64,000 bases of DNA from a virus (taxonomy: Duplodnaviria > Heunggongvirae > Uroviricota > Caudoviricetes). Under the pieces are notes generated by a model, which made no database searches, was not told the DNA's origin, and saw only the letters and a list, made by a program, of their open reading frames with translations. How positions within the stretch are numbered: position 1 is the stretch's first letter; each line of letters starts with the position of its first letter. The stretch spans positions 1 through 64,000 of the IMG/VR virus record IMGVR_UViG_2778261638_000005; one strand, written 5' to 3'. Below are positions 9,702-28,999 of the stretch, in pieces. A program made the translations under genes and the position numbers.

Positions 9702-10241
9702 TTATCGACCGGTTGGAGTGCCAACAGCAGCAGAAATCGGCGCAGCCTTCTGAGAGAATGGGCTCCACGTTCCTCCGCCCATCTGGTATGCACCGTATGC
9801 TTTTAGTGGTGCCGTTAACAAAGTGCTGGTCATCGATGATTTAGCAGCCGACTGAGCAGCAGCCCCCTGTGCCTGAGCATTCATTCCCTGAACCTGATAC
9901 CCATATGCCTCACGCTGAGCATTATTCACTGTCGTTAACGCATCAAGAGTGCCGAACTGAGCATTATCCGCAAAAACGTCAAGAGCTGTTCCGCTACTTA
10001 ATTCCGCACCGGTAGCCCCCATAGTGGCCGCCGCAGTGCCTGAGCGTTGACGCATTTCACGACGACGCTGATCCGCTTCAATATTCCCACGATTGATTGA
10101 ATCCTGTGCCTGAGCTTCAGCAATTTCAGTATTCCGATCAGCTATGGCTGACTGGTATTTTGCCTGCTTGCTCTGGCTGTACATTGACGCGGCTGTGGAT
10201 GCCACTGTGACGGCAACCAAAGCGATGGCTGGGTTACACAT
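9702..10241 (-). CDS. Small internal virion protein (179 aa), T7 gp14-like position
   Basis: Hydrophobic N-terminus, Ala/Gln-rich; position after the tail tubular genes. Confidence 0.35.
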   Translation of the reverse strand: MCNPAIALVAVTVASTAASMYSQSKQAKYQSAIADRNTEIAEAQAQDSINRGNIEADQRRREMRQRSGTAAATMGATGAELSSGTALDVFADNAQFGTLDALTTVNNAQREAYGYQVQGMNAQAQGAAAQSAAKSSMTSTLLTAPLKAYGAYQMGGGTWSPFSQKAAPISAAVGTPTGR

Positions 10242-10705
10242 TATTTTCTCTCCATGTGAAATCTGTGGAAATTAAGACCAAGAGCACCATAAGGCGCGGC
10301 TTCTTCAAGCCTGAATCCAAGCCAGTGCAGCCATGCTTTGGCAACATGGTTTCGCTCGTCGACGTAGTTTTCCAGGCGCGGATAAACTGCCAGCATCTGC
10401 TGCAATACAGGGCGGCAGTGGCGAAGAAATGTCTTCTGATATTTTTCAATACGGCTGGTTCCGACCAGCCAGGGCGTACCATTGCCACCAATCATTGACG
10501 CCGGAGATACACCAAACATGGTTACCAGTTCTCCGTTTGCAAATCCTGACCAGGCCATGGTCGCAGTGCGCAGACCAACACGCAGCGCATCTTCGGTAGT
10601 CATCAGCGATACAGCATACAGTTCGTCAATATCAGCCTGACGAACATCCGGCAAAATCATCTGAAGATGCTCTTCGGTTGCGGGAATAATTTGAACATCG
10701 ATCAT
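10241..10705 (-). CDS. Virion assembly/internal protein (154 aa), T7 gp13-like position
   Basis: ATGA stop-start overlap with the upstream gene at 10705; position. Confidence 0.35.
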   Translation of the reverse strand: MIDVQIIPATEEHLQMILPDVRQADIDELYAVSLMTTEDALRVGLRTATMAWSGFANGELVTMFGVSPASMIGGNGTPWLVGTSRIEKYQKTFLRHCRPVLQQMLAVYPRLENYVDERNHVAKAWLHWLGFRLEEAAPYGALGLNFHRFHMERK

Positions 10706-13176
10706 CAGAATCCCCCAACAGTAAGGCGAGGAATAACGGCAAGAACAGACAGCGGCAACGGATCAAGCTGACGGATTTTTACACGTCCGTTTTTGCCCCA
10801 GTTACTGTCCAGTTTCACTTCTACTTTTCCGGTAGCGTCATCAACAGGATCATCGTAGAACTCGAATTCACGCTGTGGATATTCGTACCATTTACCGCCG
10901 GGAGTAGTCGCCCAGATGCCGCGACTGGCATTCACAACCAGAGTAACGGACGGGATCACCTGTTTTTTGTCCAGCAGCGTTTCCTGTCCGTTAATGTTGA
11001 TATCCAGTGTTTCGAATTCAGCAGTTATTGGCAGGCCGATGTGCACTACAGCCCCTGGTGATTCAAGCGTGACGGCACCTCCGGAAACTACTTTCTGTGG
11101 TTCCACGTTCGCATCAGAGAGGATGTTTACGGTCTGACCTTCAAGATGAGACAAGCCGCCAAATGCCCGGCGCGCCATCTGCCAGTTCGTGGTGGCCACA
11201 TTCCTGAGGGATGGCGGGACGTTCCTGTTAGCACGAACCACTACAGCGGTGTTGCTGGTTACAGAAATAATGTCGCAACGTAATTCTTTTGACACTTCAT
11301 CGCCAGTATCAGGATCAGTTCCGGTATAAGGGAACTGTAGTTGCGCACCGACATCACTACTGGTGAAGTACGCACCACCAGAAATACTGATTGTATATTC
11401 CGCGCGGTAATCCCATTCGCCAGAACCACCAGTGATGGTCATCGTTCTGTCAGACGTATTTCTTCCATCATAGCTAAGGCCAGAATCAACAAAGAAAGCA
11501 TCTTCATCGCTGGTAAATAAACGGCTGGACAGCCGCTCGATGTATCTCACTGTTTGCCCGTTAACGGTTCGGTTAACGACGAAATACACCGCATCTTCAT
11601 TGCCTTCGCTGATACTGCATGTGCTTTCATATTTTCCGGTACTGGATTGTGGTGCCCATGCAAAAACCTGCTGATCACGCAAATAGGTCATCACCAGTAA
11701 TTTACCGTCATCACGAATGCAGAAGGCGCTGGAGTAAGGGACAATAGAGAAGCACCAGTCAACAATGCTGTGCTTCTGAAAAAGATGATTGGCAAGGATG
11801 GTCAGGTCGTTCCCCTGATAGCCGTCAACATCGAATGAGTAGGCCAAATCACGGACAACACTGCCTTTCTCCTGGACGAACAGAGCAATATTCGCCACGG
11901 CAATTGGTGGGACATTGCTCGAGCCATTTGATCCCTGAGAGCTGAATGCAAATGATGATGGGGTTAACACTTTGTTCTGGTCGCCGGTGATGACGTACTC
12001 ACCTCCGGAAGTCAGTGCCACCAGCGAACCGACATCAATCAGGTGGCGGATCTCATTAACCTGACGCCCGGCATAGGTGTAGATAATTCTGTCGTCATCC
12101 TGCGTAGGATTGCTTTTGCCAAAATCCTTATAATCCCCGGTACGGCTGGCCCAGATAGTCTGAGGGAACGCAGTCGATGCGGCGAAGTAAAGACGTTGTT
12201 GATAATAAACAACAGTGCCAGGATAACCATTAACACTGTTCCAGGTATATTTAGCCCATTTATAGCTGGCATTATCCTCGCCAACTACCTGCGAAGGGAT
12301 ATAGGAAATCACCTCGGCAGTTGCAGTAGTTCCATTTGCAGCAGTGATACGGGCAATGCCAAAACCACTGTGCAGATATTCCCACTCAATGCCAGTATCA
12401 TCATCACCGGATCCGCCCCAGCCATCCCATGATGTGCCTTCTGTATGCGAAGGGCGCAAAGTACCTGTTTTGCCTGCTGTAACGGCGCGATAGTAGTTAC
12501 TGTCTGCACGGCGAATATCGCCAATCGACGTACTCTTACTGGTTTCCCATACCGGCACTGAATCCACTGCAGGCTGTTCCAGATAGAACAATTTTCCTAC
12601 CTGCTCCGCGCCAAAAATAGAGGCGCTTGCCGTTAACGTAATTGTCCCGGTGCTGGCGCTGGCATAAACCGTCACTGACTCGTCAATATTGATATCTTCA
12701 AATGGCCCGTTCTTCGTTACCACATCAACCAGTTGCCAGTTGTCATGAGCATATCGGCGCAACTCTTTCGGCGGGTATGCCGGGTGAACCAGCGTAAGCA
12801 CGTCGGCGCTTTGCGTGAATTTAATTCGGAACAGATCGGCTTCAGTATATGGCGTGGCAATTTCATAAATAACATTGCTGCTGTTCAGCACCAACGCACC
12901 ATCTTTGATAACGCGCATGTACTGGTGTCCGAACTCCAGAGCATAGGTCTGAACCGTCGAGAACTGGAACGGGATCAGGCGGCATTTCCGATTTGGGTAT
13001 TTGGCGGCACCGACAAAACGCGTACCAGGTCGATTCTCAACGCCGCCATACTGCCGCACGATAAAGTTATCGCACTTGCGCAATGCCACCTGGTACTTCG
13101 CCATGTCAATACGCCCGTACAACGACGGTCCAATCTCACCACCGGCAAAGCTGGGCTGGATCCAACTGATAGCCAT
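10705..13176 (-). CDS. Tail tubular protein B-like (823 aa)
   Basis: Size and position match T7 gp12-type nozzle protein immediately after the tubular-A-like gene. Confidence 0.5.
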   Translation of the reverse strand: MAISWIQPSFAGGEIGPSLYGRIDMAKYQVALRKCDNFIVRQYGGVENRPGTRFVGAAKYPNRKCRLIPFQFSTVQTYALEFGHQYMRVIKDGALVLNSSNVIYEIATPYTEADLFRIKFTQSADVLTLVHPAYPPKELRRYAHDNWQLVDVVTKNGPFEDINIDESVTVYASASTGTITLTASASIFGAEQVGKLFYLEQPAVDSVPVWETSKSTSIGDIRRADSNYYRAVTAGKTGTLRPSHTEGTSWDGWGGSGDDDTGIEWEYLHSGFGIARITAANGTTATAEVISYIPSQVVGEDNASYKWAKYTWNSVNGYPGTVVYYQQRLYFAASTAFPQTIWASRTGDYKDFGKSNPTQDDDRIIYTYAGRQVNEIRHLIDVGSLVALTSGGEYVITGDQNKVLTPSSFAFSSQGSNGSSNVPPIAVANIALFVQEKGSVVRDLAYSFDVDGYQGNDLTILANHLFQKHSIVDWCFSIVPYSSAFCIRDDGKLLVMTYLRDQQVFAWAPQSSTGKYESTCSISEGNEDAVYFVVNRTVNGQTVRYIERLSSRLFTSDEDAFFVDSGLSYDGRNTSDRTMTITGGSGEWDYRAEYTISISGGAYFTSSDVGAQLQFPYTGTDPDTGDEVSKELRCDIISVTSNTAVVVRANRNVPPSLRNVATTNWQMARRAFGGLSHLEGQTVNILSDANVEPQKVVSGGAVTLESPGAVVHIGLPITAEFETLDININGQETLLDKKQVIPSVTLVVNASRGIWATTPGGKWYEYPQREFEFYDDPVDDATGKVEVKLDSNWGKNGRVKIRQLDPLPLSVLAVIPRLTVGGF

Positions 13177-13781
13177 CAGGACAACCTCGCAATGGTAAAC
13201 TCATCAACCGGTGGCTGTGGTTCCTGTGATTCATTCTGGCTATGCGAGCCAGCACTAAGAATCACGCGATTGTACATATTGAGGGCAAACGTACCGAGGT
13301 CTGCATTCCCAGTCAGCGCCATGTTAATAGCTGCCGCAAGACGCCAGGCCAACGCCTCCATAAAAATGGCATCAAACATGTTCACATCTGTAACGCGAGA
13401 GACATACTTGAGCCATGCCTGAGGCTGGTCTGTGTAGATCAACTTTCCTGTTCCGTTGGTGTCTGCACCAACTTCGTACTGAACGCGCATTGCTGCTGTT
13501 GGATTGCGTACACCAGGAAGCATAATTTCAGTAATGCGCAGACAATCGGACGGGTACTGATACGCATATTCCCAGTCAGGCGGTGGATTGCTCGTATCTG
13601 CAAGCGACACGCGTTTGGTAGCAAAGTTCCAGTCAAAATCAGAAAGCACAGCATCACGGCAGGCCTCAAAGTGCAGCGAACATTCCCCCGCTTCCTTGCT
13701 GGCTTCCGTCAGGCTGTTAATGCTGCGGCTATTGCCAATATTGGACAGCGCACGATTGCAGATCTCTACTACAGAGGCCAT
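13176..13781 (-). CDS. Tail tubular protein A-like (201 aa)
   Basis: About 200 aa, N-terminal pattern NRALSNIGNS reminiscent of T7 gp11-family adaptor proteins; precedes the 823-aa gene. Confidence 0.5.
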   Translation of the reverse strand: MASVVEICNRALSNIGNSRSINSLTEASKEAGECSLHFEACRDAVLSDFDWNFATKRVSLADTSNPPPDWEYAYQYPSDCLRITEIMLPGVRNPTAAMRVQYEVGADTNGTGKLIYTDQPQAWLKYVSRVTDVNMFDAIFMEALAWRLAAAINMALTGNADLGTFALNMYNRVILSAGSHSQNESQEPQPPVDEFTIARLS

Positions 13782-14104
13782 TACTCACCCCCATTGCCGT
13801 ACAGGGTTTCAGCCGCTGATTTTTCTACATCCCCGGAAACAGGAGCGATCGCCATATCAGTGATCTGCAGATCGGCGCTGCGATTAACACCATCGTCAGT
13901 TTCTCTGGCAGACAGGCCTCGAATAACAGCCTTTGCAGTTATCATCACTTCTGTTCCGACGCCCTGAGGTTGCGCCTTCAGCTTATTCAATGTGTCGTTA
14001 TTAAGAGTGATGCACAGCCCCCACGGGTATTCATCGCGAGTTCTGGTTTCTCCGCTCTCATCCTGGTAGCTGTCAGTGCCGGTTTTGAGGTTTACGAGTT
14101 CCAT
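13781..14104 (-). CDS. Hypothetical virion protein (107 aa from ATG 14104; frame opens at GTG 14110)
   Basis: AGGAG RBS 6 nt upstream of ATG; in virion module. Confidence 0.4.
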   Translation of the reverse strand: MELVNLKTGTDSYQDESGETRTRDEYPWGLCITLNNDTLNKLKAQPQGVGTEVMITAKAVIRGLSARETDDGVNRSADLQITDMAIAPVSGDVEKSAAETLYGNGGE

Positions 14105-14116
14105 ATACACTCCTGC

Positions 14117-14137
14117 AATAAAGGGGCCGAAGCCCCT
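14117..14137 (-). terminator. Hairpin AGGGGC-UUCG-GCCCCU followed by U-rich tract (minus strand)
   Basis: 6-bp GC stem with UUCG tetraloop then TTATTGC on the minus strand, between the 114-aa and 107-aa genes. Confidence 0.45.
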
Positions 14138-14154
14138 TATCTGATTCGCGAGGC

Positions 14155-14499
14155 TTACACGCCCAGTTCTTTACGCTTATCTGCGATCTTCTCGCGGAGC
14201 GTTTCGGCTTTGGCGTTATGGTGTGGCTTCTCGTTAAAGAGCAATTCGTACTCTTCACGGAGCTTATCCAGTTCACCATCATCTGACACATCGTTGATGA
14301 TTTTGGTGCTGGTTGCTGCCATAGACACCTTTCCTGCTACCTTTGCTTTTGCCTGTCTGGCTGCATCGTTAACAGGTTCCAGTGCGCTACCAGGCTCACC
14401 TTCGTATTCGATTTCTGCCCCCTCCGGCCACAGTGTGTTATGGATATGAGAGAGGCGCAGAACGCGGTATCTTGGTTTCTCACCTGACATCGATATCAC
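14155..14499 (-). CDS. Hypothetical protein (114 aa)
   Basis: ORF in virion module, charged C-terminal half. Confidence 0.35.
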   Translation of the reverse strand: MISMSGEKPRYRVLRLSHIHNTLWPEGAEIEYEGEPGSALEPVNDAARQAKAKVAGKVSMAATSTKIINDVSDDGELDKLREEYELLFNEKPHHNAKAETLREKIADKRKELGV

Positions 14500-14500
14500 C

Positions 14501-14938
14501 TTAACCAGTTACTTTTGAGCGGATCGGATACGGCGTATTGGCATCAACATCAAGACTGATACCAGCAGTGAATTCGCCAGCCGTTAGTGGGCCAGTTGCG
14601 ACGGAGTAGTTAACACGCAGATATCGCTTAACACCGGCAGGCACCTTTGCAGAAACAATTCGTTTACCTGCTGTCAGGGCGGTCTTTGCCAGTGCGCCAC
14701 TATCATAAATAGTGGTCCATGAGCTGTTATTCTCACTCGTCTGCAACTGGATGTTTACAGTTGCATCACCGCTTGCCGCGGCGGCTGTGTTAACCAGCGC
14801 CCAAAACTCAAGCGGGTAACCCACGCCGATATCACGATGTTTTCCGTCAATTGGACCGAGATCGATTACGTCAGTAGAAGCCGCGGTATTCGTAACCGCC
14901 TGAGCTTCGGAGAACATCAACAGTTTGTCGGTGATCAT
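14501..14938 (-). CDS. Putative capsid decoration / head-associated protein (145 aa)
   Basis: Immediately downstream of major capsid gene; Thr/Ala/Ser-rich beta-type composition. Confidence 0.35.
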   Translation of the reverse strand: MITDKLLMFSEAQAVTNTAASTDVIDLGPIDGKHRDIGVGYPLEFWALVNTAAAASGDATVNIQLQTSENNSSWTTIYDSGALAKTALTAGKRIVSAKVPAGVKRYLRVNYSVATGPLTAGEFTAGISLDVDANTPYPIRSKVTG

Positions 14939-14953
14939 CTTCTTTCTCCATTA

Positions 14954-14973
14954 GTGGGTCTGTTACGACCCAC
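14954..14973 (-). other. Stable stem-loop GTGGGTC-N6-GACCCAC between capsid gene and next gene (possible processing or attenuation site)
   Basis: 7-bp stem, no U-tract; location analogous to the T7 post-gene-10 structure. Confidence 0.3.
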
Positions 14974-14989
14974 AGGTTAATAACAGGCG

Positions 14990-15982
14990 TTACACCACGC
15001 GGGCTTCTGTTTCCAGAAGCGCATCAGTTTCACGGATTGGTACACCACGGAATGAAGTCCACCACTCGCCTTCTGTCTCTTTTACGCTGATCGCCAGAGA
15101 TGTTTTCTCCAGAGATTGCAGATCAAGAGCCTGGCCTACAGTGCGGTTCATGTAGAACACTGGGCGCCCCATGCCACGGTTTGGAATGCGATGCAGTGCT
15201 TTAACCATCAACTTCGCAATATTTGCGGCAGAGGAAGGTTCTGAAAGATTGCTGACATCGATGTTTGCAATGCGAACGACATAACGCCAGTCACGCAGAG
15301 CAAGTCCGTTATCCCATTTGTAATGGGTACGGTAGCCTTCGTACTTGCCGCCATTAGCATCTTCCAGTGTCACTTGGCCTTTATCTTCCATCTGAATGCC
15401 AGCCTTCTGCCCTTTCGGGAAGATGCCATGCACGGTGTTTTCGCCCCACACCACTAACCAGATTGAGGTGTTATCTGTACCCGTGCCACCAGCATCAATG
15501 ATGTTCTGAGCATTACCCGCAGACAGGCTGGAATAGCGGGAGGACAGTCCCATAAACTGCTGAGGGTTAACGCTGGAATCACCATAAAACAGCGTCTGCG
15601 CCATCTGCTGATTCATCGCTTCAATAAATGCTCGGTCTTCAGACAGGCGGAATTCGGCGGTATTGCCGTTCAGATCAGCCAGTGACTTATCGACCTCAGC
15701 ATAGGTTTCCAGCATGCCAACGGAATCGGTGACCTGCACTGTGGTTGATTTGCTTGGCTGTACGCCATAGTTCAGCAAACGCCAGGTAGCTGAAGGTAAA
15801 CCAGAACGAATGGTGGTTCGGTGTCCGGTAGGAAGGTTCCCTTCGACAAAAGGCATATCCTGAAGGATCGGGTTAGTTTGACCGAGAAGCTCGATAATCT
15901 TATCGACTTTCCCGTTTGGATCGACGCGCTTACCCCAGTCAGCCAGCGTTAGCGCAGTTAAGCCTTTAACAGCCATTGTCAT
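14990..15982 (-). CDS. Major capsid protein (330 aa)
   Basis: Follows scaffold gene; size and composition typical of T7/epsilon15-type HK97-fold capsid proteins. Confidence 0.7.
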   Translation of the reverse strand: MTMAVKGLTALTLADWGKRVDPNGKVDKIIELLGQTNPILQDMPFVEGNLPTGHRTTIRSGLPSATWRLLNYGVQPSKSTTVQVTDSVGMLETYAEVDKSLADLNGNTAEFRLSEDRAFIEAMNQQMAQTLFYGDSSVNPQQFMGLSSRYSSLSAGNAQNIIDAGGTGTDNTSIWLVVWGENTVHGIFPKGQKAGIQMEDKGQVTLEDANGGKYEGYRTHYKWDNGLALRDWRYVVRIANIDVSNLSEPSSAANIAKLMVKALHRIPNRGMGRPVFYMNRTVGQALDLQSLEKTSLAISVKETEGEWWTSFRGVPIRETDALLETEARVV

Positions 15983-15990
15983 TTCCTCTC

Positions 15991-16692
15991 TTATTTGCCA
16001 TAGAGCACTTCGGCCGCACTACGCTGGCCTTCATTACCACCGGTGACCATGCCATCTTCAGACATCGCCTTTCCGATTTTCACGAACGTTTTGACCAGAT
16101 CAGGGTGATTACCCAGCCCGGTGGCGTTCAGATACTCTTTGAGTTCAGGTGTCCCGAACTGGTCAAGCGCACGCTGTGCGGCGCTAAGGTTAGAAATCAA
16201 CTTGTCGCCACCGATTTCTTTGTCAGCTTTTACATCCGCAGCCCACTGCTCGGTTGTTTTCTGCCAGGCTTCTGCCTGGCGCTGCTGAACACCTGCCAGA
16301 ATCTTCGGATAAGCATCAACCAGCTTTTGCGCTTGCTCGTTGGTCAGGTTAAGTTCTCGCGCCACCGGCTCGAATTCCTTCAACGCTTCTGTATCCAGCT
16401 CTACGCCTTCGGCAGCCTGAAACTCGTACTTCTCAGGCGCACCCTCCGGTTTATCGCCGTCCTTTTTTTCACCCTGCTTATCGCTTTCAGGCTTTTTGTC
16501 ATCAGCAGGTTTATCGCCATCAGCAACAGGTTGTGTCTTATCACCTTCCTGTTGTGATGGATCACCAACTGGAGCAGGGTTATCACCTGCAGGCGCTGAC
16601 GGTTCTGACGCAGCCGGAGCTGCTCCACCATCGACTGGTTGCTCATTGCAAAGACGGCGATACAGCAAACGCTCAAATAAATTCATGATCAC
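15991..16692 (-). CDS. Scaffolding protein (233 aa)
   Basis: Highly acidic, Pro/Ala/Glu/Lys-rich low-complexity N-half and helical C-half; between portal and capsid. Confidence 0.6.
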   Translation of the reverse strand: MIMNLFERLLYRRLCNEQPVDGGAAPAASEPSAPAGDNPAPVGDPSQQEGDKTQPVADGDKPADDKKPESDKQGEKKDGDKPEGAPEKYEFQAAEGVELDTEALKEFEPVARELNLTNEQAQKLVDAYPKILAGVQQRQAEAWQKTTEQWAADVKADKEIGGDKLISNLSAAQRALDQFGTPELKEYLNATGLGNHPDLVKTFVKIGKAMSEDGMVTGGNEGQRSAAEVLYGK

Positions 16693-16985
16693 TCCTGTTC
16701 ACTGGCCTCTTTGGCCATCTTCAAATACTGTTCAGGGCAATGCGCCATAACGCGCTGAAACAGTTCCAGCGCCAGATTGCGTTGCCCCTCATTAAATGCC
16801 ATTGCCATAGCGTCCATCGGTGAGATAGCGGAAAACACACGGCCTTTCTCCAGCACCGACCAGACAACGCGACGCCCCTGTTCACTGCTCATGACAAAGC
16901 GAATGTCATCAATTTCACGCTGCGCCATGTCACGTTGCTTACGGGCGTTTTCTTCTTTCAGTTGATCGTCTTCGTAATCTGTCAT
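16689..16985 (-). CDS. Hypothetical protein (98 aa)
   Basis: ORF translationally coupled between portal and scaffold genes. Confidence 0.4.
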   Translation of the reverse strand: MTDYEDDQLKEENARKQRDMAQREIDDIRFVMSSEQGRRVVWSVLEKGRVFSAISPMDAMAMAFNEGQRNLALELFQRVMAHCPEQYLKMAKEASEQE

Positions 16986-18661
16986 TGTGATTGCCCACCC
17001 TGACCACTAACTGCATTCGCCATAGCTGACAAAACACTCGGATCCGAAGTTTTAGCTTCGCTTAGCGTCTTGGCACCCTGTGCCGCCGCCATCCCCATCG
17101 CCATCATTTGTTGCTGCTGTTGTTGCTGTGCCCGTTGCTGGCGAGTCTGCTCAACCTGTTCCTGCGGAACAATGACGGTTGGAGACACTCCGGACATATC
17201 AGCGAATGCATCGATCGCCTGATCAACGTTGAGTTTGTCGAGAGCTTCTGGTTTCGCTTGCGCAAGTTGACCAATGAAGTTGACCGTAGACGCCAGACTG
17301 GACAGGCCGATAGACTTCTGCGCCTGAGCCATGACGGAAATGTATTCGACCTTCAGGGGCATACCTTCCATCGCGTCAGGCGGTGGCGGCAGCATTTTTT
17401 TACGCACCATCATCGAGAAAGCGCGGTCAATGAGAGGATTAAGACATTCGTCGTTCAGACGCTCCAGAACCGGCCCCAACATCAGAAGTTTTTCTTCTTT
17501 CATTTCGATCACCGCTTCAACAGGCATCGAGCGGGTATTGATGTTCTGCAACATCATGAACAGATCGACAAAGTAGGCGCTGTTAATGATTTGGCGAGTG
17601 TCCTGAATGTCTGCTACCAGATCTGCTGTACTGGGGTTAACCAGATAAGCAGGCCTGAAACCATCCTGACCAGTAATCTGATCGATATACGTGATGTCGC
17701 CAGGAAGAAGGGAGGCGCGCTGATTCTTGAGGGAAGTCGGAGCAACCATCGGCGGATTGGTGGCTTTATCAATCAACTGCGACTTGCGCTTCTGGAGAAG
17801 CTGCAATGCCTTAACAGGTCCAAGCGCCAGCATACCCGGGCATGATGATCCATAAACATCTTCGCCGTTAACTTCCCAGCGCGGAGCCATAATTGGAAAC
17901 TCATCGAATCCGGACTCACGCAACAACTTGTCGTTATCGCCACCAACCTCGTAATAAACCGATTTGAATGGCTTGTTCTTGCTATCCAGCTTCGATGTAT
18001 CGCGGTCAATGTTCGGGTAAACCGAATGCATCACTTCAATCCACTTCTCGTAGGTGCCGCTTTCCCACATGCTTTTTACGGATTCGCTGACGTTATTTAG
18101 CCCGAACTCCTGAACAAGCTGACGAACAGTCATAGAGAACTTGCGAAAACAGGTGTCCACACTGCCACGAGGTGAGTTAGCCAGGTAGTAACTGCCTATC
18201 GGGAATGGCATTGTGCGAATGATGTCCTCGTCATCCTCCAGCACTGCCATTGCACCAGTGCTGTATGTGCCGAGGCTTCCGTATAACTGCGGCAGAGACT
18301 GATAGAGATTCGACTTATTGAACATATCGTTCATGCGGTTCTGCACCGCCTCAAGCCACAACTTAACAGGGCCATAATCCATCATTTCAGGATCTGGCGT
18401 AGCCAGGCGAAACCACGGACGCGCGGGGCTTGTGATGCCTGACATCATGCCGCTGGCGAGAGTGCGCGCCGCCATAGTCCCGGTCGAATCAATAATGCGT
18501 GTATTGCGTCGATCGTTACGGTTGACCTCAGAAGTCAGAAAGCGGGAACCACGCGGGTTGATGTAATCACTCAACTCGCGCCAGTGCGGCTCGAACGACT
18601 GACGCTCGCTTTCAAGTTGTGCGAACTGTTTGTTCAATCGCTCTTTAGTTGTTTCCGCCAT
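16982..18661 (-). CDS. Portal (head-to-tail connector) protein (559 aa)
   Basis: Size and position upstream of scaffold/capsid; Gln-rich C-terminal tail typical of T7-type portals. Confidence 0.7.
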   Translation of the reverse strand: MAETTKERLNKQFAQLESERQSFEPHWRELSDYINPRGSRFLTSEVNRNDRRNTRIIDSTGTMAARTLASGMMSGITSPARPWFRLATPDPEMMDYGPVKLWLEAVQNRMNDMFNKSNLYQSLPQLYGSLGTYSTGAMAVLEDDEDIIRTMPFPIGSYYLANSPRGSVDTCFRKFSMTVRQLVQEFGLNNVSESVKSMWESGTYEKWIEVMHSVYPNIDRDTSKLDSKNKPFKSVYYEVGGDNDKLLRESGFDEFPIMAPRWEVNGEDVYGSSCPGMLALGPVKALQLLQKRKSQLIDKATNPPMVAPTSLKNQRASLLPGDITYIDQITGQDGFRPAYLVNPSTADLVADIQDTRQIINSAYFVDLFMMLQNINTRSMPVEAVIEMKEEKLLMLGPVLERLNDECLNPLIDRAFSMMVRKKMLPPPPDAMEGMPLKVEYISVMAQAQKSIGLSSLASTVNFIGQLAQAKPEALDKLNVDQAIDAFADMSGVSPTVIVPQEQVEQTRQQRAQQQQQQQMMAMGMAAAQGAKTLSEAKTSDPSVLSAMANAVSGQGGQSQ

Positions 18662-18675
18662 TTCAATGACTCCGG

Positions 18676-18882
18676 TTACTGACCAAGTAGCGTTTTACCG
18701 CTGGTATTAGCGGTTGATGTGTCGCCCTGAGAACCGGTAAGCAGCGTAGAACTACGACCAGCAGCAGCGCGACGGCGACGAGTTTCTTCGTCGCGGGCAT
18801 CAACAACGGCGGCATCCTGCTCCTGTGGTGCTGCCTGAACTTCTGGTGTTGCAGGCACTGATGGTGAGCTACCCATGCACAT
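18676..18882 (-). CDS. Small hypothetical protein (68 aa), low-complexity
   Basis: ORF just upstream of portal gene; may not be real. Confidence 0.25.
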   Translation of the reverse strand: MCMGSSPSVPATPEVQAAPQEQDAAVVDARDEETRRRRAAAGRSSTLLTGSQGDTSTANTSGKTLLGQ

Positions 18883-18972
18883 ATCAATGACTCCGTACGC
18901 AATTAAATTATTACCAATTTAACCACATATGATTTATTTATCGTAGTCGGTTGACATTTAACGCACGAATTA

Positions 18973-18987
18973 TTACCTTTCAGGTAA
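18973..18987. promoter_or_regulatory. Palindrome TTACCTTTCAGGTAA, second copy of the regulatory cassette (upstream of portal-region genes)
   Basis: Identical 15-mer to 2354..2368; nearby CATATGTGGTTAAATTGGTAA element at 18911..18931. Confidence 0.5.
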
Positions 18988-19309
18988 CCAAAAAGTTCAT
19001 TCCGGTTACTAACCTGACTGGCTTGTCGTTAAATTGAACAGGTGGAGTGAGCTTTTATTTTGAGCAGTACGGCGTATGGCACATGCGCCGATAGCGGCCT
19101 GGATACGTTTAAGGGGCACCCTCCCTTGCTCGGGCAAACGAACCAGGTAGCCGGAATGTGCAAGTCGAGCGGTTTTATTCCGCGCACGGGGATTCACCAT
19201 CCCGGCGATTCGGTGTGACGCCTCGGAAGAGACGAGGGTACAACGATGAGAGCATTTATGGAGCCGCGACAAAGTGTGGTGCCTTAACAGGCTAAGTGCT
19301 CTCAGCGTT

Positions 19310-19386
19310 GTGGCATTAGCTCAGTCGGACAGAGCAACCGCCTTCTAAGCGGTTGGTCGCAGGTTCGAATCCTGCATGCCACGCCA
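19310..19386 (+). tRNA. tRNA-Arg (anticodon UCU), phage-encoded
   Basis: Cloverleaf by eye: acceptor GTGGCAT/ATGCCAC, D-arm GCTCAGTCGGACAGAGC, anticodon arm ACCGC-CTTCTAA-GCGGT, T-arm GCAGG-TTCGAATC-CTGC, 3' GCCA. Confidence 0.85.
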
Positions 19387-19548
19387 GAATCACGCCTAAG
19401 GACCGTGATGCCAGAAGTTCCAGTGCTTGGCGGTGATGGTTTCCCTTGAAGGACTATCACCGCACTTTTTACAGCAGGACGCCATTGCGATGACTTCATG
19501 CTGTAAACCCGTACAGCCACGGAAGGAAGAACTCATTGCTTCCAGTTC

Positions 19549-19572
19549 GCCCGGTTCGCCGGGCATTTTTTT
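19549..19572 (+). terminator. Intrinsic terminator GCCCGG-UUCG-CCGGGC + U7 downstream of tRNA, 12 nt upstream of the Gp49-like start
   Basis: GC stem, UUCG loop, run of 7 T. Confidence 0.6.
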
Positions 19573-19583
19573 AAGGTGAGATT

Positions 19584-19940
19584 ATGAACGACCAGCAAAT
19601 CGAAAAAGAAATCGTTGAGAAAGGCAAAACGGCACCGCGAGTTACGCCTCAATATATCGAAAGCATCATTCTTGAAGAGCATTTCTTTACTGCTTATGAC
19701 GGCATTCGTGCCGCCAATATGGGCGTTGGCGATTCATGGACAGCGCATAACTCTACAGACCTCCTGACTTTCTGCGTACTGGTGCTGAAGAATGGCTTCA
19801 CCGTCACCGGAGAGAGTGCCTGTGCAAGCCAGGAAAACTTTGATGCAGAAATTGGTCGGAAGATTGCCCGGCAGAATGCTGTAAACAAAATCTGGATGCT
19901 CGAAGGTTACTTGCTGAAGCAGAAGCTAAGCGAGCAATAA
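19584..19940 (+). CDS. Gp49-like (N4 gp49 / Sf6 gene 66 family-like) protein, 118 aa
   Basis: Sequence resembles the small prophage protein family common in enterobacterial prophages (recollection); AAGGTGAG RBS; opposite strand to flanking genes. Confidence 0.5.
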   Translation: MNDQQIEKEIVEKGKTAPRVTPQYIESIILEEHFFTAYDGIRAANMGVGDSWTAHNSTDLLTFCVLVLKNGFTVTGESACASQENFDAEIGRKIARQNAVNKIWMLEGYLLKQKLSEQ

Positions 19941-19960
19941 CACCGTGACATGTCACAAAC

Positions 19961-19987
19961 AGCCAGCCGATGAGCTGGCTTTGTTTT
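19961..19987 (+). terminator. Intrinsic terminator AGCCAGC-N6-GCTGGCT + UUGUUUU after Gp49-like gene
   Basis: 7-bp stem followed by T-rich tract; lies between convergent genes. Confidence 0.5.
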
Positions 19988-20030
19988 ATCCTCACCAGAG
20001 GATATCAGCAGCATTATCCCCTCCAACGGA

Positions 20031-21506
20031 TTAAGCATAGGGATCGTAATCTGTGATGGCCTTGCCTTGCTGGTTCTGCTGCCCGGGAATTCGCAGACGC
20101 TTCGACACAGGGAACGCAAACGTCAGCAGTAGCGCATCGCCTTTACCCGGCGAACGCCCAAGCCGCTCCTTGATATCTTCCTTCGGTTCGATAACGATTT
20201 TACCGTCCACTCGAACTTTGTACTCAGCCGCCGACAGGTCGTCCGCTGTTTCCTGGTCATCAAGCATGCCACCCAGCCTCAGCCATGTCTTGCATGAGTT
20301 GAACATCTCCCCACGCTTGTTGAGCATCTGCGGGTCAGTAGACGCGCCACCGAACGGAACAAGTTGCCATGTACGACCCCAGCCGTCACCGATTGACTTC
20401 AGACCAGTTCCGTAACCGAAGTCGATGAACACTGCGTCAGCCTGGTACTGGTCTTCAAAGTCAGCGATACGCTTCGCCATAATCAGATCGTCAGTGGTCT
20501 TGTTGCCAGTCCACAGCACCTTACTGTGCAGCCCCTGCCGCAGGTATATCACAGCGTCATCAACGCCGGAGTATGCCGGGTCAACGCCGATTATCACCGG
20601 AGCATGTGCAACCTGCGCAGCGGTTACCACCCGTTTCATTGCCTCGTCAGTAAGGCCAGTAGGGATAAACTGCAATTCAGATGCATCCGGGAATATGCCG
20701 CGCACACGGATTTTAACGAAGTCGCTGTCTTCCCCGTAGTCATCAACCCATTTCTGCAACTGCTGTTTGTTAGTGCCTTCCACCGTCCGGCTGTCAATCT
20801 GCGCACACTTCCAGCGGTGTTTGTACTTGCGGAAACATTCACGGAAACGCCCGGTGTTACGCGTCGGGTTTCCGAACGCCACCCAGATAATCTCAGTGTC
20901 TTCGTCCGTTAGCGCACCCTCGGCAACTTCCCACACCAGATCCGCAATGTTCGACGCTTCATCGAATACCACGATGATGCGTTTGCGCTCGTTGTGTAGT
21001 CCGGCGAATGCCTCAGTGTTGTGCTCAGACCAGGGGATTGCGTCAGCTCGCCACCGCTTGTCGTGCCCAGGGTCATTGCTGTACATCGCGGTAGCGGTAC
21101 AGGTAAACCAGTCTTTCGTGATAGCAAGGTTCGACCACTTGATAATTTCCGGCCAAGTCTTCGTTCGTAGCTGGTTGTCGGTGTTGGCGGTCACCACGAC
21201 CTTACAATCCTCGCAAGTGGACATGCCCCAGTTGATCAGCATTGAGATGAATGCGGATTTACCAATACCGTGACCCGAAGCACGTGCCAGCATAAGCGGC
21301 TGATAGCGCGTCTCTGGATTCTGCAGGTGATCACGTATCTCTCGGAACGCATCAGCCTGCCACTGACGTGGACCGGTGGCATGTGCTAATTCAGTCCCCT
21401 CTTCCCCCCACGGGAACGCATAGAGGGCATAGCCAAGCGGATCGTGAGTGAACCCTGCAATATCCTCGATCAACTGCTCTTCAGGAGATAACGCTGTATC
21501 TGTCAC
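20031..21506 (-). CDS. Terminase large subunit (491 aa)
   Basis: N-terminal ATPase with Walker A-like GHGIGKS, C-terminal nuclease-type acidic residues; overlaps small-subunit gene. Confidence 0.85.
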   Translation of the reverse strand: MTDTALSPEEQLIEDIAGFTHDPLGYALYAFPWGEEGTELAHATGPRQWQADAFREIRDHLQNPETRYQPLMLARASGHGIGKSAFISMLINWGMSTCEDCKVVVTANTDNQLRTKTWPEIIKWSNLAITKDWFTCTATAMYSNDPGHDKRWRADAIPWSEHNTEAFAGLHNERKRIIVVFDEASNIADLVWEVAEGALTDEDTEIIWVAFGNPTRNTGRFRECFRKYKHRWKCAQIDSRTVEGTNKQQLQKWVDDYGEDSDFVKIRVRGIFPDASELQFIPTGLTDEAMKRVVTAAQVAHAPVIIGVDPAYSGVDDAVIYLRQGLHSKVLWTGNKTTDDLIMAKRIADFEDQYQADAVFIDFGYGTGLKSIGDGWGRTWQLVPFGGASTDPQMLNKRGEMFNSCKTWLRLGGMLDDQETADDLSAAEYKVRVDGKIVIEPKEDIKERLGRSPGKGDALLLTFAFPVSKRLRIPGQQNQQGKAITDYDPYA

Positions 21507-22099
21507 TGATTACCATCCTGACGTTCTTTGAGTCGCTTCCTGGCTGCTGCTATGCGATCAGCAATTGTCACATTCACATTAACATCCAGACGTTCTTTGA
21601 ACGCGTTGACATCAACATGCTTACCAATCAGCTCAAGGTTCTTCACCTTGTCAGGCCATTTAATTTTTTTGAGGATTGTCTCTATCGAATCCTCGTTCAT
21701 GTTCATGATGGTCGATGACAGATCAAAGCCACTAAGCGTAGTGCGCCAAATTTTCGGCCACTCACGGATTGGTTTAAGGCTCCCATCGTCGTTGAGGATG
21801 TCGATCACGTCCATCTGGTCGATCTCCACCAGGCGCATGAGAACGTAATCAGCACTGACGCGCATTCGTTTGTTGCGCTCCTCCATCAACTCGGCAATCC
21901 GTTTTTGAATGCGTTCATCGCGCATCATGACACTGGCTTTAACTGCCGCTGTATTTGGGGAGAATCCTGCGTTAATCGCTGCCTGAGTCTGGTTTTCAGG
22001 CGTTTTGATGTATGACTGGCAATAAGCCTCCTGCATTGCTGTTAGTGGCTTAAATTGCGTTGATTTGCGTTTATAGGTTTTAGGTTCAGCAGGCATCAT
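21503..22099 (-). CDS. Terminase small subunit (about 198 aa; start set at MMPAEPK)
   Basis: Precedes and overlaps large subunit; upstream part of the long ORF contains a terminator hairpin, so the internal ATG is preferred. Confidence 0.6.
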   Translation of the reverse strand: MMPAEPKTYKRKSTQFKPLTAMQEAYCQSYIKTPENQTQAAINAGFSPNTAAVKASVMMRDERIQKRIAELMEERNKRMRVSADYVLMRLVEIDQMDVIDILNDDGSLKPIREWPKIWRTTLSGFDLSSTIMNMNEDSIETILKKIKWPDKVKNLELIGKHVDVNAFKERLDVNVNVTIADRIAAARKRLKERQDGNQ

Positions 22100-22150
22100 A
22101 ACCACCGTGGTAATAGTTACCGTTGTGGTAATAGTATCATGCAAAATAAA

Positions 22151-22168
22151 GCCGCCATAGTTGGCGGC
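22151..22168 (-). terminator. Hairpin GCCGCCA-N4-TGGCGGC + UUUAUUUU (minus strand) upstream of terminase operon
   Basis: 7-bp stem and U-tract when read on the minus strand. Confidence 0.5.
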
Positions 22169-22217
22169 AGTATTCAAAACCCATCAAATTCATCATGCAT
22201 AATCTACTCGTGACATG

Positions 22218-22556
22218 TCACACTATTAATTTCGTTTCATGCCAGCCTTTAGTCACCCAGCATTGCGAGTCACCATTACACGGGCATGAATTAACTGGAA
22301 CTCTCTCGCCGCACTTACCGCAACGTTTTCTGCTGATCGATTTTATACGCCCGCGCACGCGTGCATCATCCTGGCGGATCAGTAACGCTATATACTCACC
22401 AAATTCGTAAGGCGCACGCCCGGGGCGACGCGTGGCACAGTTACGCTCCAGCATTTCAATTTCCTGAGCATCAAGCACAATTTCCAGCTTACGCACACCA
22501 GATGCAGCTTGTCTGGCTCTCTGAGCGGCTTTGCGCTCTGCTGATGATTTAGCCAT
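22218..22556 (-). CDS. Hypothetical protein with C-terminal Cys-rich zinc-ribbon-like motif (112 aa)
   Basis: CGKCG...CPCNGDSQC motif; basic N-terminus. Confidence 0.4.
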   Translation of the reverse strand: MAKSSAERKAAQRARQAASGVRKLEIVLDAQEIEMLERNCATRRPGRAPYEFGEYIALLIRQDDARVRGRIKSISRKRCGKCGERVPVNSCPCNGDSQCWVTKGWHETKLIV

Positions 22557-22917
22557 TCTGATTTTCCTGCATCATGAGAAATACAATCATGGCGGCGCGG
22601 AGTGGGTTGTTGTCTATGGTAATAAATTCACAAAATCTATCCGCCTCCCACCAATATTCATTCTTCATTCCAGGATTATTTCTTTCGTATGCACATATGC
22701 TGATCTGATGTTTTGCGATTACAGGCCATGAGGCGCTCGGATCATTGCAGTAGTCAGGTAAAGGGTTTAATGGCTCAAAAGTTGTATCAGCATTTCCGTA
22801 ATACCATTTGTTGGTGTTATTCCCTGATGTTTCCGGTTTACATGCCCAAAGGCCTTTAAAAATTATGTCTCCTACCATTCTGTTAATTTCAAAATCACTT
22901 AACTGTGAATAGTCCAT
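22549..22917 (-). CDS. DUF2591-like phage protein (122 aa from MDYSQLSDFEINRMVGDI)
   Basis: N-terminus resembles the DUF2591 family seen in enterobacterial prophages (recollection); TAATG stop-start overlap with upstream gene. Confidence 0.45.
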   Translation of the reverse strand: MDYSQLSDFEINRMVGDIIFKGLWACKPETSGNNTNKWYYGNADTTFEPLNPLPDYCNDPSASWPVIAKHQISICAYERNNPGMKNEYWWEADRFCEFITIDNNPLRAAMIVFLMMQENQNG

Positions 22918-23300
22918 TACTTCACCTCCTGCGGCGGTTCTGGTAGCGGCATCCAATTGATTACATCGCATTCAGGGATGCTGATATCATCACCAAGCCA
23001 CCCTTGACCTTCAGACCAGCATTGCACGTAATACCCGTATTCTGTGTTCACTACGCACCACTGCGCGTCGTCCGGCATTTGCTCACTACAGCTTATCCAA
23101 TCATCCGGAGTTACCGGAGAGTTGCCCGATAGCTGGTTCAACTTGTAAGTTTGGCTTACAGGTTCTGCTTCCAGCGATGCCAGTGCAATTCGTGCCAGCT
23201 CTTCCGCTTCTTCTGCTGGCAGTACAACGTTGCTACCAGGTCCGTATGTTTCGCGCCACTGCTTGATTGTCAGCAGTCGCTCTTTGGTTATAGTGGTCAT
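22917..23300 (-). CDS. DUF551-like phage protein (127 aa)
   Basis: C-terminal W/C-rich motif WISCSEQMPDD...WCVV...W typical of DUF551 (recollection). Confidence 0.5.
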   Translation of the reverse strand: MTTITKERLLTIKQWRETYGPGSNVVLPAEEAEELARIALASLEAEPVSQTYKLNQLSGNSPVTPDDWISCSEQMPDDAQWCVVNTEYGYYVQCWSEGQGWLGDDISIPECDVINWMPLPEPPQEVK

Positions 23301-23557
23301 TTGTTAATCCTCAAAACTTTATGCCCGGGCGCAAAAGCACGCGTTTTGTCTTTGCTTATTCGCCAGCCATCCTTGCGCGCCTCTTTTGCACAGCCAGCCC
23401 ATGACGTACCTATATACTCACCGAAGTCTGGCGACTTATATTTGCCATCTGTACATTGGAGGCAATCACAATAGAGATGCATGGTGTAACTTGCAGCGAT
23501 AGCCATATCACTCTCCTTTAGTGCGCAAGTGGTTTTTCCAGCGGTTTTGCGCCGCAC
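23297..23557 (-). CDS. Hypothetical Cys-rich protein (86 aa; start uncertain)
   Basis: ORF coupled to downstream gene; several Cys. Confidence 0.3.
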   Translation of the reverse strand: MRRKTAGKTTCALKESDMAIAASYTMHLYCDCLQCTDGKYKSPDFGEYIGTSWAGCAKEARKDGWRISKDKTRAFAPGHKVLRINK

Positions 23558-23865
23558 TGGGCTTTTTGCAACAGCTGTGACCCATCACCCCGCAACACCC
23601 CGTCAACCTCACTCGTCTGTTACTAATCCTCAACCATCGCCAGACCCCAACACCGTTTCTGCTAGCTAACAGAATTTTTGCCTTACGGTTTTTCATCGTT
23701 TTGTTCTCCTGCGTTTCCTTGCTGCTCGTTTCGCCGCTGCAACGCCTGTACGGCGTTTCGGTGCCGGAATGATGCTGTCAGCCATCAGGACATACGGCTT
23801 TGCAATTAGCGCAGAAGCCCAAAAACGAGTCGGGTACGGTAACAAGCCGATACATGCCACACGCA

Positions 23866-24537
23866 TTACTCACCTCCTTTGATGCGAATGCCTGCGGCGC
23901 GTGGCACATTAACTTCCACGATGCGCACTGTTGGTTTGTACATCTCAATCGCTGTCAGCCAGTCAGCTCCTGTCATGCGCTTTTCCGCATCGCCATTAGT
24001 CCACTGAACCGGTACACCAATAGCCTTCATCGCAATTTCTATTTCCCCGGCAATGGCGCTTTTCCCGCAACCAGTAAAACCAGATACAACGACAAGAACT
24101 TCGCCTTTGGCTGGTTTTATTTCCCGAGCTTCCAGTTCTGCTATGCGCTTACTTCCATCCGCGATTACTCCCTCGTAATACTCACGCTGCTCGTTGAGTT
24201 TTGATTTTGCTTCCTCAAGCTCAACACGCAGTTCCCTTACCGTTAGCGCAATTTCCTCGTTCTCCTGGTCACGGCTTTTGATGTATTGCTGGTTTCTTTC
24301 CCGTTCATCCAGCAGCGCCTGCACTACTTCAGGGTTGAAATCTGCGATATAACGAGCGTTGTTCTCTGCGTTTTTCTGCCCATCAAAGCCGGGCCATTTG
24401 ATAACGTCTTCACATCGTTTATCACCAGGTGTATGCACCGCATATGTACCAGTACCAGACGAAATAAATGCGACCCATTCACCCTGTGTTGCCAGTTGCG
24501 CCGCTTCACGCAGTGCCTGATAGTCAATCTTGCTCAC
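23866..24537 (-). CDS. Ea22-like (ead/Ea22 family) protein, 223 aa
   Basis: N-terminus MSKIDYQALREAAQLATQGEW matches the Ea22-like signature (recollection); coiled-coil middle. Confidence 0.55.
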   Translation of the reverse strand: MSKIDYQALREAAQLATQGEWVAFISSGTGTYAVHTPGDKRCEDVIKWPGFDGQKNAENNARYIADFNPEVVQALLDERERNQQYIKSRDQENEEIALTVRELRVELEEAKSKLNEQREYYEGVIADGSKRIAELEAREIKPAKGEVLVVVSGFTGCGKSAIAGEIEIAMKAIGVPVQWTNGDAEKRMTGADWLTAIEMYKPTVRIVEVNVPRAAGIRIKGGE

Positions 24538-25154: not shown

Positions 25155-25215
25155 CTTTACCCTCGCTTATCCACATAACTTATTGATTACATTGATAACT
25201 AAAAAGATCGTCGAT

Positions 25216-25560
25216 TCAGAACTCTTCGATATTCCAGCCGCCACCTGCTTTCTTTGGCTTAACCGTTACCCCGATGATTCGGAACGGATACTGATCTGCG
25301 GCGACTTTGGTTTTCACCCTGGCGTCGTCGGTCCAGAAACCTTTCACTTCATGCAGTTCCATCTCACCAGTGGCGAGCATCACAGCGAAATCTGGCGTAT
25401 AGAACGTGTTGTCAGCCAGCCGCAGCTTGATACCCTCGAACCGATACCAGGCGATTTCCCCTGCACGTTTACGCTGCTCAAGGTGCTGGCAATACGCAGA
25501 TTCTGTTTTGTTCATCTGGCCTGTTTTGAGTCGACCAAGAGCCTGTATCTGCTTTCTCAT
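25216..25560 (-). CDS. DUF1064-like phage protein (114 aa)
   Basis: Sequence resembles the DUF1064 family common in lambdoid nin regions (recollection). Confidence 0.5.
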   Translation of the reverse strand: MRKQIQALGRLKTGQMNKTESAYCQHLEQRKRAGEIAWYRFEGIKLRLADNTFYTPDFAVMLATGEMELHEVKGFWTDDARVKTKVAADQYPFRIIGVTVKPKKAGGGWNIEEF

Positions 25561-25640: not shown

Positions 25641-25785
25641 TTATTGAGGCGTAAAAAAATGCGCTATCGCGCTGGTATTACTTGATAAATCCTGCCGCCT
25701 TTCCCCGCCTGTATTCCTCCATCAGCCACTGCGCCGGTGTTATTCCCCCCAGGGTGGCGGCGTTAGGCATGCACTAAAGCGCGCA

Positions 25786-28994: not shown

Positions 28995-28999
28995 AAATT

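Follow-up and report, generated by a model that had tools for sequence, protein, structure and literature searches.

Virion genes of a phiV10/epsilon15-type Escherichia coli prophage with remote T7 affinities and a nested Mu-like element

Does a series of virion genes that follows the order of T7 genes come from a T7-like phage? The question is raised by a stretch of 64,000 nucleotides of tailed-phage DNA (positions 1 to 64,000 of IMG/VR record IMGVR_UViG_2778261638_000005; hereafter the window), for which a preliminary description made from the sequence alone had proposed a T7-like virion module at 10705-22099, embedded in a temperate prophage with lambdoid replication genes. We find that window positions 1-25774 and 62684-64000 are, with a probability of about 0.96, part of a prophage of a temperate, short-tailed Escherichia coli phage of the phiV10/epsilon15 type (genus Uetakevirus), and that the flagged region is its intact late operon. 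The virion module comprises the intact head, tail and DNA-ejection genes of such a phage, and nothing was found that contradicts this assignment.

The gene series is real and far beyond chance. In the open reading frame (ORF) list of the window, with Pfam and PHROG in agreement, the virion genes are present and intact, every one of them on the minus strand (Table 1), and ORF checks together with protein comparison reveal all 17 structural ORFs to be full length. The T7-like order from portal to tailspike exists as proposed, but the interval given for it covers only TerS to the nozzle and leaves out, on its left, the internal virion proteins at 2897-10705 as well as the tailspike at 1-2250. Capsid and adaptor genes are likewise both present but not adjacent, with three genes between them (Bbp16-like cement, gp9-like and gp10-like staple), and a Bbp19-like gene sits between the portal and scaffold genes. 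The terminase genes do precede the structural series, as had been described. We note that the proposed end at 22099 is an internal ATG of TerS, and that the phiV10 annotation gives the same 224-residue ORF from the upstream start.

Comparison at the DNA level places the module among known phages. In megablast searches of a phage collection, 10705-22177 matches phiV10, the O157 typing phages 9 and 10, vB_EcoP_ZX5, phiv142-3 and PAS61 with 98% identity over 96-98% of the query (98.1% over the module for vB_EcoP_ZX5), TL-2011b with 97.7%, Enterobacter phage Tyrion with 82% and Salmonella phage epsilon15 with 77.6%. Local alignment reveals a single 19.5-kb block from TerS to the gp17-like gene, in which phiV10 1-19523 corresponds to window 22217-2708 at 96.2%. 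The module proteins are 94-100% identical in amino acid sequence to those of phiV10, with the exceptions of the 179-residue internal virion protein (IVP) B (63%) and the tailspike (72% over 232 residues). Every module gene has a collinear counterpart in phiV10 and epsilon15, PF20911, PF21628 and PF21190 are all matched, and the structural set of Uetakevirus is found in order: gp4 portal, gp7 capsid, gp10 staple, gp11/gp12 tail, gp13-gp17 core and the N-terminus of the gp20 tailspike.

A genus is delimited here at a nucleotide similarity (identity times coverage) of at least 70% and a species at 95%. The prophage part of the window has an aligned fraction of 0.89 and an identity-weighted similarity of 0.85 to phiV10; the corresponding values for a complete twin prophage, described below, are 0.80 and 0.76. 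Because these similarities exceed 70% and fall below 95%, the prophage is, on sequence comparison, a member of Uetakevirus that is close to phiV10 but probably not conspecific with it.

The twin prophages reveal what the window leaves out. Three complete E. coli genomes, WP3-S18-ESBL-09 (NZ_AP022036.1), the O22:H8 strain 154 and WGI31CT, carry prophages at guaA that are 99.7-99.9% identical to the window over positions 1-23165, 24765-25774 and 62684-64000, tailspike included. They differ from the window copy in an intact gene P without the Mu-like insertion and in another 2-kb early segment. In WP3-S18-ESBL-09 the prophage spans 39,885 bp between guaA and yfgI and is bounded by 17-bp direct (att) repeats. 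Its genes run in the order integrase, recombination genes, repressor, DnaT-like initiator, P, nin-like genes, late regulator and TerS through tailspike, followed by two acyltransferases, a GDSL esterase, holins, an endolysin and a spanin. For the close relative ZX5, a short tail, lysogeny at the 3' end of guaA and spontaneous induction have been shown experimentally (PMC9782041).

The members of the phiV10 group (O157 typing phages 9 and 10, ZX5, phiv142-3 and TL-2011b) share with the window prophage the gene order from TerS to the gp17-like gene at 96-98% DNA identity, the DnaT-like and lambda-P-like replication genes, a late regulator that precedes TerS and a tRNA-Arg located between the terminase and portal genes. 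They differ from it in the tailspike body, IVP-B, the gp49-like accessory gene, some early genes and an uninterrupted P. Epsilon15, the type phage of Uetakevirus and a model system of cryo-electron microscopy, has the same architecture and order, with amino acid identities of 81% for the portal, 85% for the adaptor, 88% for the nozzle and 95% for TerL. The structural reading of capsid gp7/gp10, the internal core and the six tailspikes is founded on this phage. Its capsid, Bbp16-like, gp9-like and gp10-like proteins, in contrast, are only 36-43% identical to those of the window and its gp17-like protein 28%, and no lambda-P-family gene is annotated in it. The closest solved structures are those of the Cobetia marina phage Carin-1 (PDB 8CJZ, 8CK0 and 8CK1), which cover portal, nozzle, adaptor and the tailspike N-terminal domain; the nozzle shares 44% identity with its Carin-1 counterpart at a template modelling (TM) score of 0.90, and the adaptor 33% identity. 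Carin-1 differs in its marine host and tailspike body, and no similarity to it was seen at the DNA level.

Two points count against the assignment to a phiV10/epsilon15-type prophage without contradicting it. The window contains no integrase, lysis or O-antigen-modification genes, so the completeness of this copy is not directly evident. In addition, the receptor-binding part of the tailspike, a patch around IVP-B and some early genes differ from those of phiV10, which makes the prophage a mosaic relative of phiV10 and not phiV10 itself.

How far, then, does the resemblance to T7 reach? The portal belongs to PF12236 (E 2.5e-187), a family also matched by T7 gp8 (E 2.8e-113), and the 179-residue protein to PF24072, also matched by T7 gp14; RefSeq names the latter in the twin prophage 'virion core protein, T7 gp14 family'. 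For adaptor and nozzle, neither a sequence-level Pfam match to PF17212 or PF25675 nor a phmmer match to T7 gp11 or gp12 was obtained. Hidden Markov model (HMM) profiles built for the two proteins (24 sequences each) and searched against PDB sequences found only Carin-1, LME-1 and, at E 3e-5, a single 'nozzle gp13' chain, and a fold comparison was needed because these profiles did not reach T7 gp11 and gp12. The AlphaFold2 model of the adaptor (predicted local distance difference test score, pLDDT, 80) matched the Carin-1 connector in Foldseek at E 1.4e-15 and, after Carin-1 and LME-1, T7 gp11 (7box, 6r21 and 7ey7) at E ~1e-6 with a probability of 1.0 and TM scores of 0.55-0.6. The nozzle model (pLDDT 89.5) matched T7 gp12 (7ey9, 6r21, 9jyz and 7boy) at E 1e-21 to 1e-24 and a TM score of ~0.5. 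Judged by their predicted folds, adaptor and nozzle would be remote homologues of T7 gp11 and gp12, and not family members by sequence.

Direct comparison of the 17 module proteins with 12 T7 proteins (gp8-gp19) by phmmer and BLASTP returned marginal matches only. Four of these pair positional counterparts, with E values that refer to the 12-protein set (portal/gp8 1e-3, IVP-B/gp14 8e-3, scaffold/gp9 0.008 and IVP-A/gp13 0.025), and adaptor, nozzle and capsid gave nothing in these searches. Taken by itself, such a comparison stays at noise level and would leave the label 'T7-like' unsupported. The T7-type families for capsid (PF21703), scaffold (PF05396) and terminase (PF22530) were not encountered; the window capsid is in PF20911, and the scaffold and TerL had no matches to the T7 families. 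Neither the window ORFs nor the annotated complete twin prophage contain a single-subunit phage RNA polymerase, and the twin carries an integrase and a repressor, so it is not of the obligately lytic T7-like (Autographiviridae) type. We therefore find a remote kinship with T7, in conserved order, for the tail hub and the ejection apparatus but not for the head and packaging genes. With respect to the homology check that had been proposed, the portal is T7-related by family and the adaptor and nozzle by predicted fold, but the capsid is not; the short-tailed (podovirus) morphotype is kept, together with the T7-like order and ancestry of the portal, adaptor, nozzle and internal virion proteins.

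The module and T7 genes 8-17 share the order of portal, scaffold, capsid, adaptor, nozzle, internal proteins and receptor-binding protein, and in both one internal protein carries a cell-wall hydrolase domain. In T7 this is an SLT domain at the N-terminus of gp16; the domain in the window is functionally analogous, but it belongs to another protein and is not a Pfam SLT domain. The two systems differ in the terminase genes, which lie downstream of the structural genes in T7 and upstream here, in capsid decoration genes (PF21190 and PF21628) and a fourth large internal protein that the window prophage adds, and in a tailspike where T7 has a fibre. The window prophage, moreover, is temperate and without an RNA polymerase.

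These affinities are documented. Hardies et al. (2016) defined an epsilon15 homology group in which the tubular tail and internal proteins are homologous to those of T7; gp12 matches T7 gp12 in HMM-HMM comparison at E <1e-10, gp17 is the homologue of T7 gp16 (IVP-D), no IVP-C homologue could be confirmed, and terminase and capsid group with siphoviruses (PMC4819975). Swanson et al. (2022) count epsilon15 as one of the phages whose gp14/gp15/gp16-like ejection proteins are encoded in matching synteny (PMC8954989), and in RefSeq epsilon15 gp11 is annotated as matching T7 tail tubular protein A by HHpred. Both the T7 affinity and the temperate, P-like context have thus been published for the epsilon15 group, and the window does not hold a new chimera.

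The preliminary description had nevertheless implied a novelty of this kind. The strongest form of it would be a T7-family (Autographiviridae-derived) module recently recombined into a lambdoid prophage to give a new chimeric temperate phage. The PF12236 portal shared with gp8, the gp14-family protein, the gp11 and gp12 folds and an order that follows genes 8 to 16 all speak for it. Yet the direct similarity to T7 is at noise level (E 1e-3 for the portal and 8e-3 for gp14 at best, among only 12 proteins), capsid, scaffold and terminase lie in families other than those of T7, and an RNA polymerase is missing from both the window and the complete twin prophage. The complete arrangement with its P-like gene recurs at 96-98% identity in phiV10, described in 2006-2009, and is the native architecture of the epsilon15/phiV10 group. 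The near-identity to phiV10 and the mismatch of capsid and terminase families refute the chimera, to which we assign next to no probability.

A second candidate is a module from a P22-like (Lederbergvirus) podovirus, the type to which short-tailed lambdoid prophages of enterobacteria usually belong. The temperate context, the tailspike in place of a fibre, and NinX and Ead/Ea22, which are common to P22-like phages, would fit such an origin, and the nozzle bears a distant structural resemblance to gp10, the tail hub of P22 (E 1e-7). The nozzle, however, agrees far better with T7 gp12 (E 1e-24), the capsid is of the epsilon15 gp7 family (PF20911), and the best matches throughout are phiV10, epsilon15, Carin-1 and BPP-1. 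A P22-like identity is likewise extremely improbable, being refuted by the phiV10-type DNA matches, the capsid family and the nozzle fold.

In sum, the preliminary description read the genes well by position, and the virion module belongs to a phage type that is already known and ordinary, with distant T7 affinities on record and nothing novel in the module itself. Phages of the phiV10-like group already serve for O157 typing and as reporter phages, and serotype conversion has been studied in them. What changes relative to the preliminary description is the identity (epsilon15/phiV10 type, not a T7 chimera), the meaning of the missing lysis and integrase genes (an effect of the window edge) and the state of this copy, which is interrupted by a Mu-like prophage.

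Table 1. Features of the window, with coordinates, strand and supporting evidence (E, expectation value; aa, amino acids).
Feature	Coordinates	Strand	Evidence
Tailspike, complete, 749 aa	1..2250	-	PHROG tail-fibre/tailspike families over residues 1-230; Carin-1 Dpo31 N-terminus E 5e-26
Epsilon15 gp17-like internal virion protein, 824 aa	2897..5371	-	phrog_684; 99% aa identity to phiV10 p20
Epsilon15 gp16-like internal virion protein, 600 aa	5377..7179	-	phrog_1145; 97.7% aa identity to phiV10 p19
Large internal/ejection protein, 837 aa, embedded cell-wall hydrolase domain	7176..9689	-	phrog_992, phrog_7182 'tail injection transglycosylase'
Internal virion protein B, 179 aa, T7 gp14 family	9702..10241	-	PF24072 E 7.3e-8, 33 bits (cutoff 27)
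Internal virion protein A-like, 154 aa	10241..10705	-	phrog_308 'internal virion protein'; position of T7 gp13
Tail nozzle ('tubular B-like'), 823 aa, T7 gp12 fold	10705..13176	-	PDB 8ck1_A 'Tail Nozzle' E 1e-216; AlphaFold2 and Foldseek
Tail adaptor ('tubular A-like'), 201 aa, T7 gp11 fold	13176..13781	-	AlphaFold2 model and Foldseek
gp10-like capsid staple/decoration protein, 109 aa	13781..14110	-	PF21628 E 1.2e-51
gp9-like protein, 114 aa	14155..14499	-	phrog_590; 100% aa identity to phiV10 p12
Bbp16-family capsid cement protein, 145 aa	14501..14938	-	PF21190 E 3e-47; RefSeq name in twin prophage
Major capsid protein, 330 aa, epsilon15 gp7/BPP-1 family	14990..15982	-	PF20911 E 2e-149; PDB 3j4u (BPP-1) E 9.5e-129; 3j40 (epsilon15 gp7) E 2e-85
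Probable scaffolding protein, 233 aa	15991..16692	-	phrog_458; position between portal and capsid; acidic
Bbp19-like small protein, 98 aa	16689..16985	-	PF25181 E 2.8e-17
Portal, 559 aa	16982..18661	-	PF12236 E 2.5e-187; PDB 8ck0 Carin-1 portal E 1e-178
gp3-like small protein, 68 aa, directly upstream of portal	18676..18882	-	Collinear with phiV10 p06 and a 207-nucleotide coding sequence of the twin prophage
tRNA-Arg (anticodon TCT), between terminase and portal	19310..19386	+	ARAGORN; annotated in related phages and twin prophage
Accessory gene, N4 gp49/Sf6 gp66 family	19584..19940	+	PF13876 E 2.7e-34
TerL, 491 aa, not T7-type	20031..21506	-	phrog_2 E 9e-53; 99.4% aa identity to phiV10 p02
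TerS, 224 aa, TTG start	21503..22177	-	PF03592 E 1.4e-29; phrog_51; 99.6% aa identity to phiV10 p01
Early-right genes: phiV10 p55-like regulator, NinX, DUF551, Ead/Ea22, DUF1064	22218..25560	-	Pfam; alignment to phiV10 34936-39104
Mu-like transposable prophage, 36,909 bp, in gene P	25775..62683	-	Collinearity break; Mom, MuA-like and MuB-like domains; junctions
Lambda-P-family helicase-loader gene	62609..63391	-	PF06992 E 1.6e-56
DnaT-like replication initiator, C-terminal 208 aa, gene leaves window	63373..63999	-	PF17948 E 7e-16; phrog_1032

The early genes support a more specific picture than the 'O/P replication' and nin-type genes of the preliminary description. P is indeed of the lambda-P family, but the initiator is DnaT-like and not a lambda O protein; phiV10 has the same pair (DnaT-family p43 and lambda-P-family p44) along with a repressor and an integrase. 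NinX (PF10765) is the only nin-type gene found. The 112-residue gene before TerS corresponds to phiV10 p55, annotated 'transcriptional regulator', and has no Pfam or NCBIfam match; no Q-family match was seen in the window, as had been stated. Lysis genes and integrase are absent, as also described, but only because the tailspike stop codon is the very start of the window: in the intact, 99.9%-identical twin the lysis genes lie just beyond the tailspike and the integrase at the guaA end.

Collinearity with phiV10 and with its twin is lost at 25774/25775 and regained at 62683/62684, where the twin is the intact prophage described above. The 36.9-kb insert between these points, on which the preliminary description is silent, is a Mu-like prophage that separates the replication genes (62609-63999) from the rest of the phiV10-like prophage. 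It lies in the orientation of its host's early-right operon, with mom/com at 25775 and c, ner, A and B at 62683, and contains Mom, Com, an invertible tail-fibre region, sheath and tape-measure protein genes, Mu-like head genes, and MuB-like and MuA-like genes. The insertion point follows codon 231 of the 261-codon gene P, where 25 foreign residues take the place of the last 30 native ones; the P ORF keeps a near-native length (260 against 261 residues) only because translation reads 75 nucleotides into the left end of the Mu-like element. No complete RefSeq E. coli genome has this P::Mu junction, and an exact-match scan of species-representative genomes was empty.

The Mu-like insert is a hybrid of Mu/D108-like late genes and kil-gam with a non-Mu-type transposase. 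In kil-gam its DNA agrees with that of Mu and D108 at 92-98% identity, and its late genes are Mu/D108-like, whereas the c-ner-A-B region has no nucleotide match to either phage. Among the 25 listed of 244 matches, the 695-residue transposase (59399-61486) shares 97% identity with the enzyme of Yersinia phage vB_YpM_5, 44% amino acid identity with that of a Mannheimia phage and ~31% with those of the Pseudomonas D3112/JBD type; phage Mu is not among these 25, a sample spread over the 244 records. The insert belongs to an E. coli/Yersinia lineage of the vB_YpM_5 type.

Canonical Mu makes 5-bp target duplications and has TG...CA ends. Here, the intact target in gene P reads GGGTGCATGCC, and the junctions (25770-25779 and 62679-62688) reveal a 4-bp duplication, GTGC, around an element with the termini 5'-TATAGAGAGG...GCGCGCTTTA-3'. 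Four further independent insertions have 4-bp duplications and TA termini as well: in ydcO (GTGA), in the ydcV/patD intergenic region (TTAA), in glpT (AGCC) and in yciH (TACT). The motif AATCATTTGATAC lies 12 nucleotides from each element end, or else a close variant does, such as the TTTATTTGATAC at the left end of the yciH copy. A 5-bp duplication with shifted element ends was rejected, as no shift yields matching 5-mers in any of the five insertions. The lineage thus appears to insert with a 4-bp duplication and TA...TA termini, unlike Mu with its 5 bp and TG...CA. A published description of this duplication length for the Mu-like lineage was not found in the literature searched, which is not proof of its being undescribed. 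We tentatively propose a Mu-like lineage with a non-Mu-type transposase and ends, a suggestion that we hold at somewhat less than even odds; if undescribed, this would be a form of Mu-type transposition not seen before, as well as a clean natural example of one prophage disabling another. The nested element is the only part of the window that merits a further look, and it bears on induction and electron microscopy, since particles seen after induction could be Mu-like myoviruses.

Can this copy still make phage? The phiV10-like prophage is probably no longer a viable phage in the carrying strain, because the Mu-like insert splits the early-right operon at P and the composite, at ~77 kb, is twice the 39-40 kb genome. 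Full inducibility, with infectious podovirus particles made despite the insertion, would be in keeping with the 17 of 17 full-length structural ORFs, a P protein that retains its Pfam P domain (residues 45-205) and the spontaneous induction of close relatives (PMC9782041). It would also demand that P work without its last 30 residues, that 36.9 kb of foreign DNA be tolerated between the initiator and P on one side and the nin-like genes, late regulator and late genes on the other, and that ~77 kb be accommodated where relatives have 39.1-39.9 kb genomes; a complete composite genome could presumably not fit the head. We consider full inducibility unlikely. The intact P domain does, however, count against the loss of viability that we infer, and the late genes could have their own promoter.

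In the phage from which the prophage derives, the virion would work as follows, a mechanism that we infer, with its protein stoichiometries, capsid geometry and ejection channel, by analogy with the literature and structures of epsilon15, T7 and Carin-1. TerS and TerL would package DNA via the T7-gp8-type portal into a scaffold-built capsid of the epsilon15-gp7-family protein, reinforced by gp10-like staple and Bbp16-like cement proteins. A 12-fold adaptor ring with the gp11 fold and a 6-fold nozzle with the gp12 fold would close the portal and carry six O-antigen-specific tailspikes, which would bind and modify the O-antigen. An internal core of IVP-A, the gp14-family IVP-B, the 837-residue hydrolase-domain protein and the gp16-like and gp17-like proteins would be packed in the head and ejected on infection, and may then digest peptidoglycan and form a trans-envelope channel.

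Several of the module proteins deserve comment. NCBIfam returned no match for ten of them. TerL had no Pfam match and no PDB sequence match, with the T7 gp19 families PF22530 and PF03237 unmatched. The 233-residue protein between portal and capsid is probably the scaffolding protein, as its position and acidic composition fit this role; it has no Pfam or NCBIfam match and hence no support for a protease domain. Databases name it 'protease', 'peptidase' or 'endoprotease' without a detectable domain. The nozzle has 18,270 representative relatives. In the 837-residue protein, the hydrolase domain lies at about residues 249-398 and matches the N-terminus of Gp29 (PDB 9vvp, E 7e-38), a 1295-residue phage core protein, and an endolysin (7q47, E 2e-17).

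Two patches diverge from phiV10 inside DNA that is otherwise 98-99% identical. The first, 19341-20017, has 69-89% identity to phiV10 and covers the opposite-strand gene of the gp49/Sf6 gp66 family, beside the tRNA-Arg(TCT). The second is a recombinant patch at ~9360-10340 with 62-79% identity to phiV10, which extends from the C-terminus of IVP-A across the whole of IVP-B into the N-terminus of the 837-residue protein; here IVP-B has 63% amino acid identity, against 94-99% for the neighbouring genes. Within Uetakevirus the capsid-shell genes are also mosaic: the capsid protein is 99.7% identical to that of phiV10 and 43% to that of epsilon15, and is nearer to that of Bordetella phage BPP-1, in contrast to portal, adaptor and nozzle, which are 81-88% identical to epsilon15.

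The tailspike aligns to phiV10 or epsilon15 only over its N-terminal third, the conserved particle-binding part. Its receptor-binding part gives a weak GDSL/SGNH-esterase-like signal (PF13472, E 6.6e-4, below the Pfam cutoff). Downstream of the tailspike, the twin prophage has two acyltransferases and a GDSL esterase, a combination that suggests a theme of O-antigen acetylation and deacetylation. An identical tailspike gene occurs in only three complete E. coli genomes, one of which is O22:H8.

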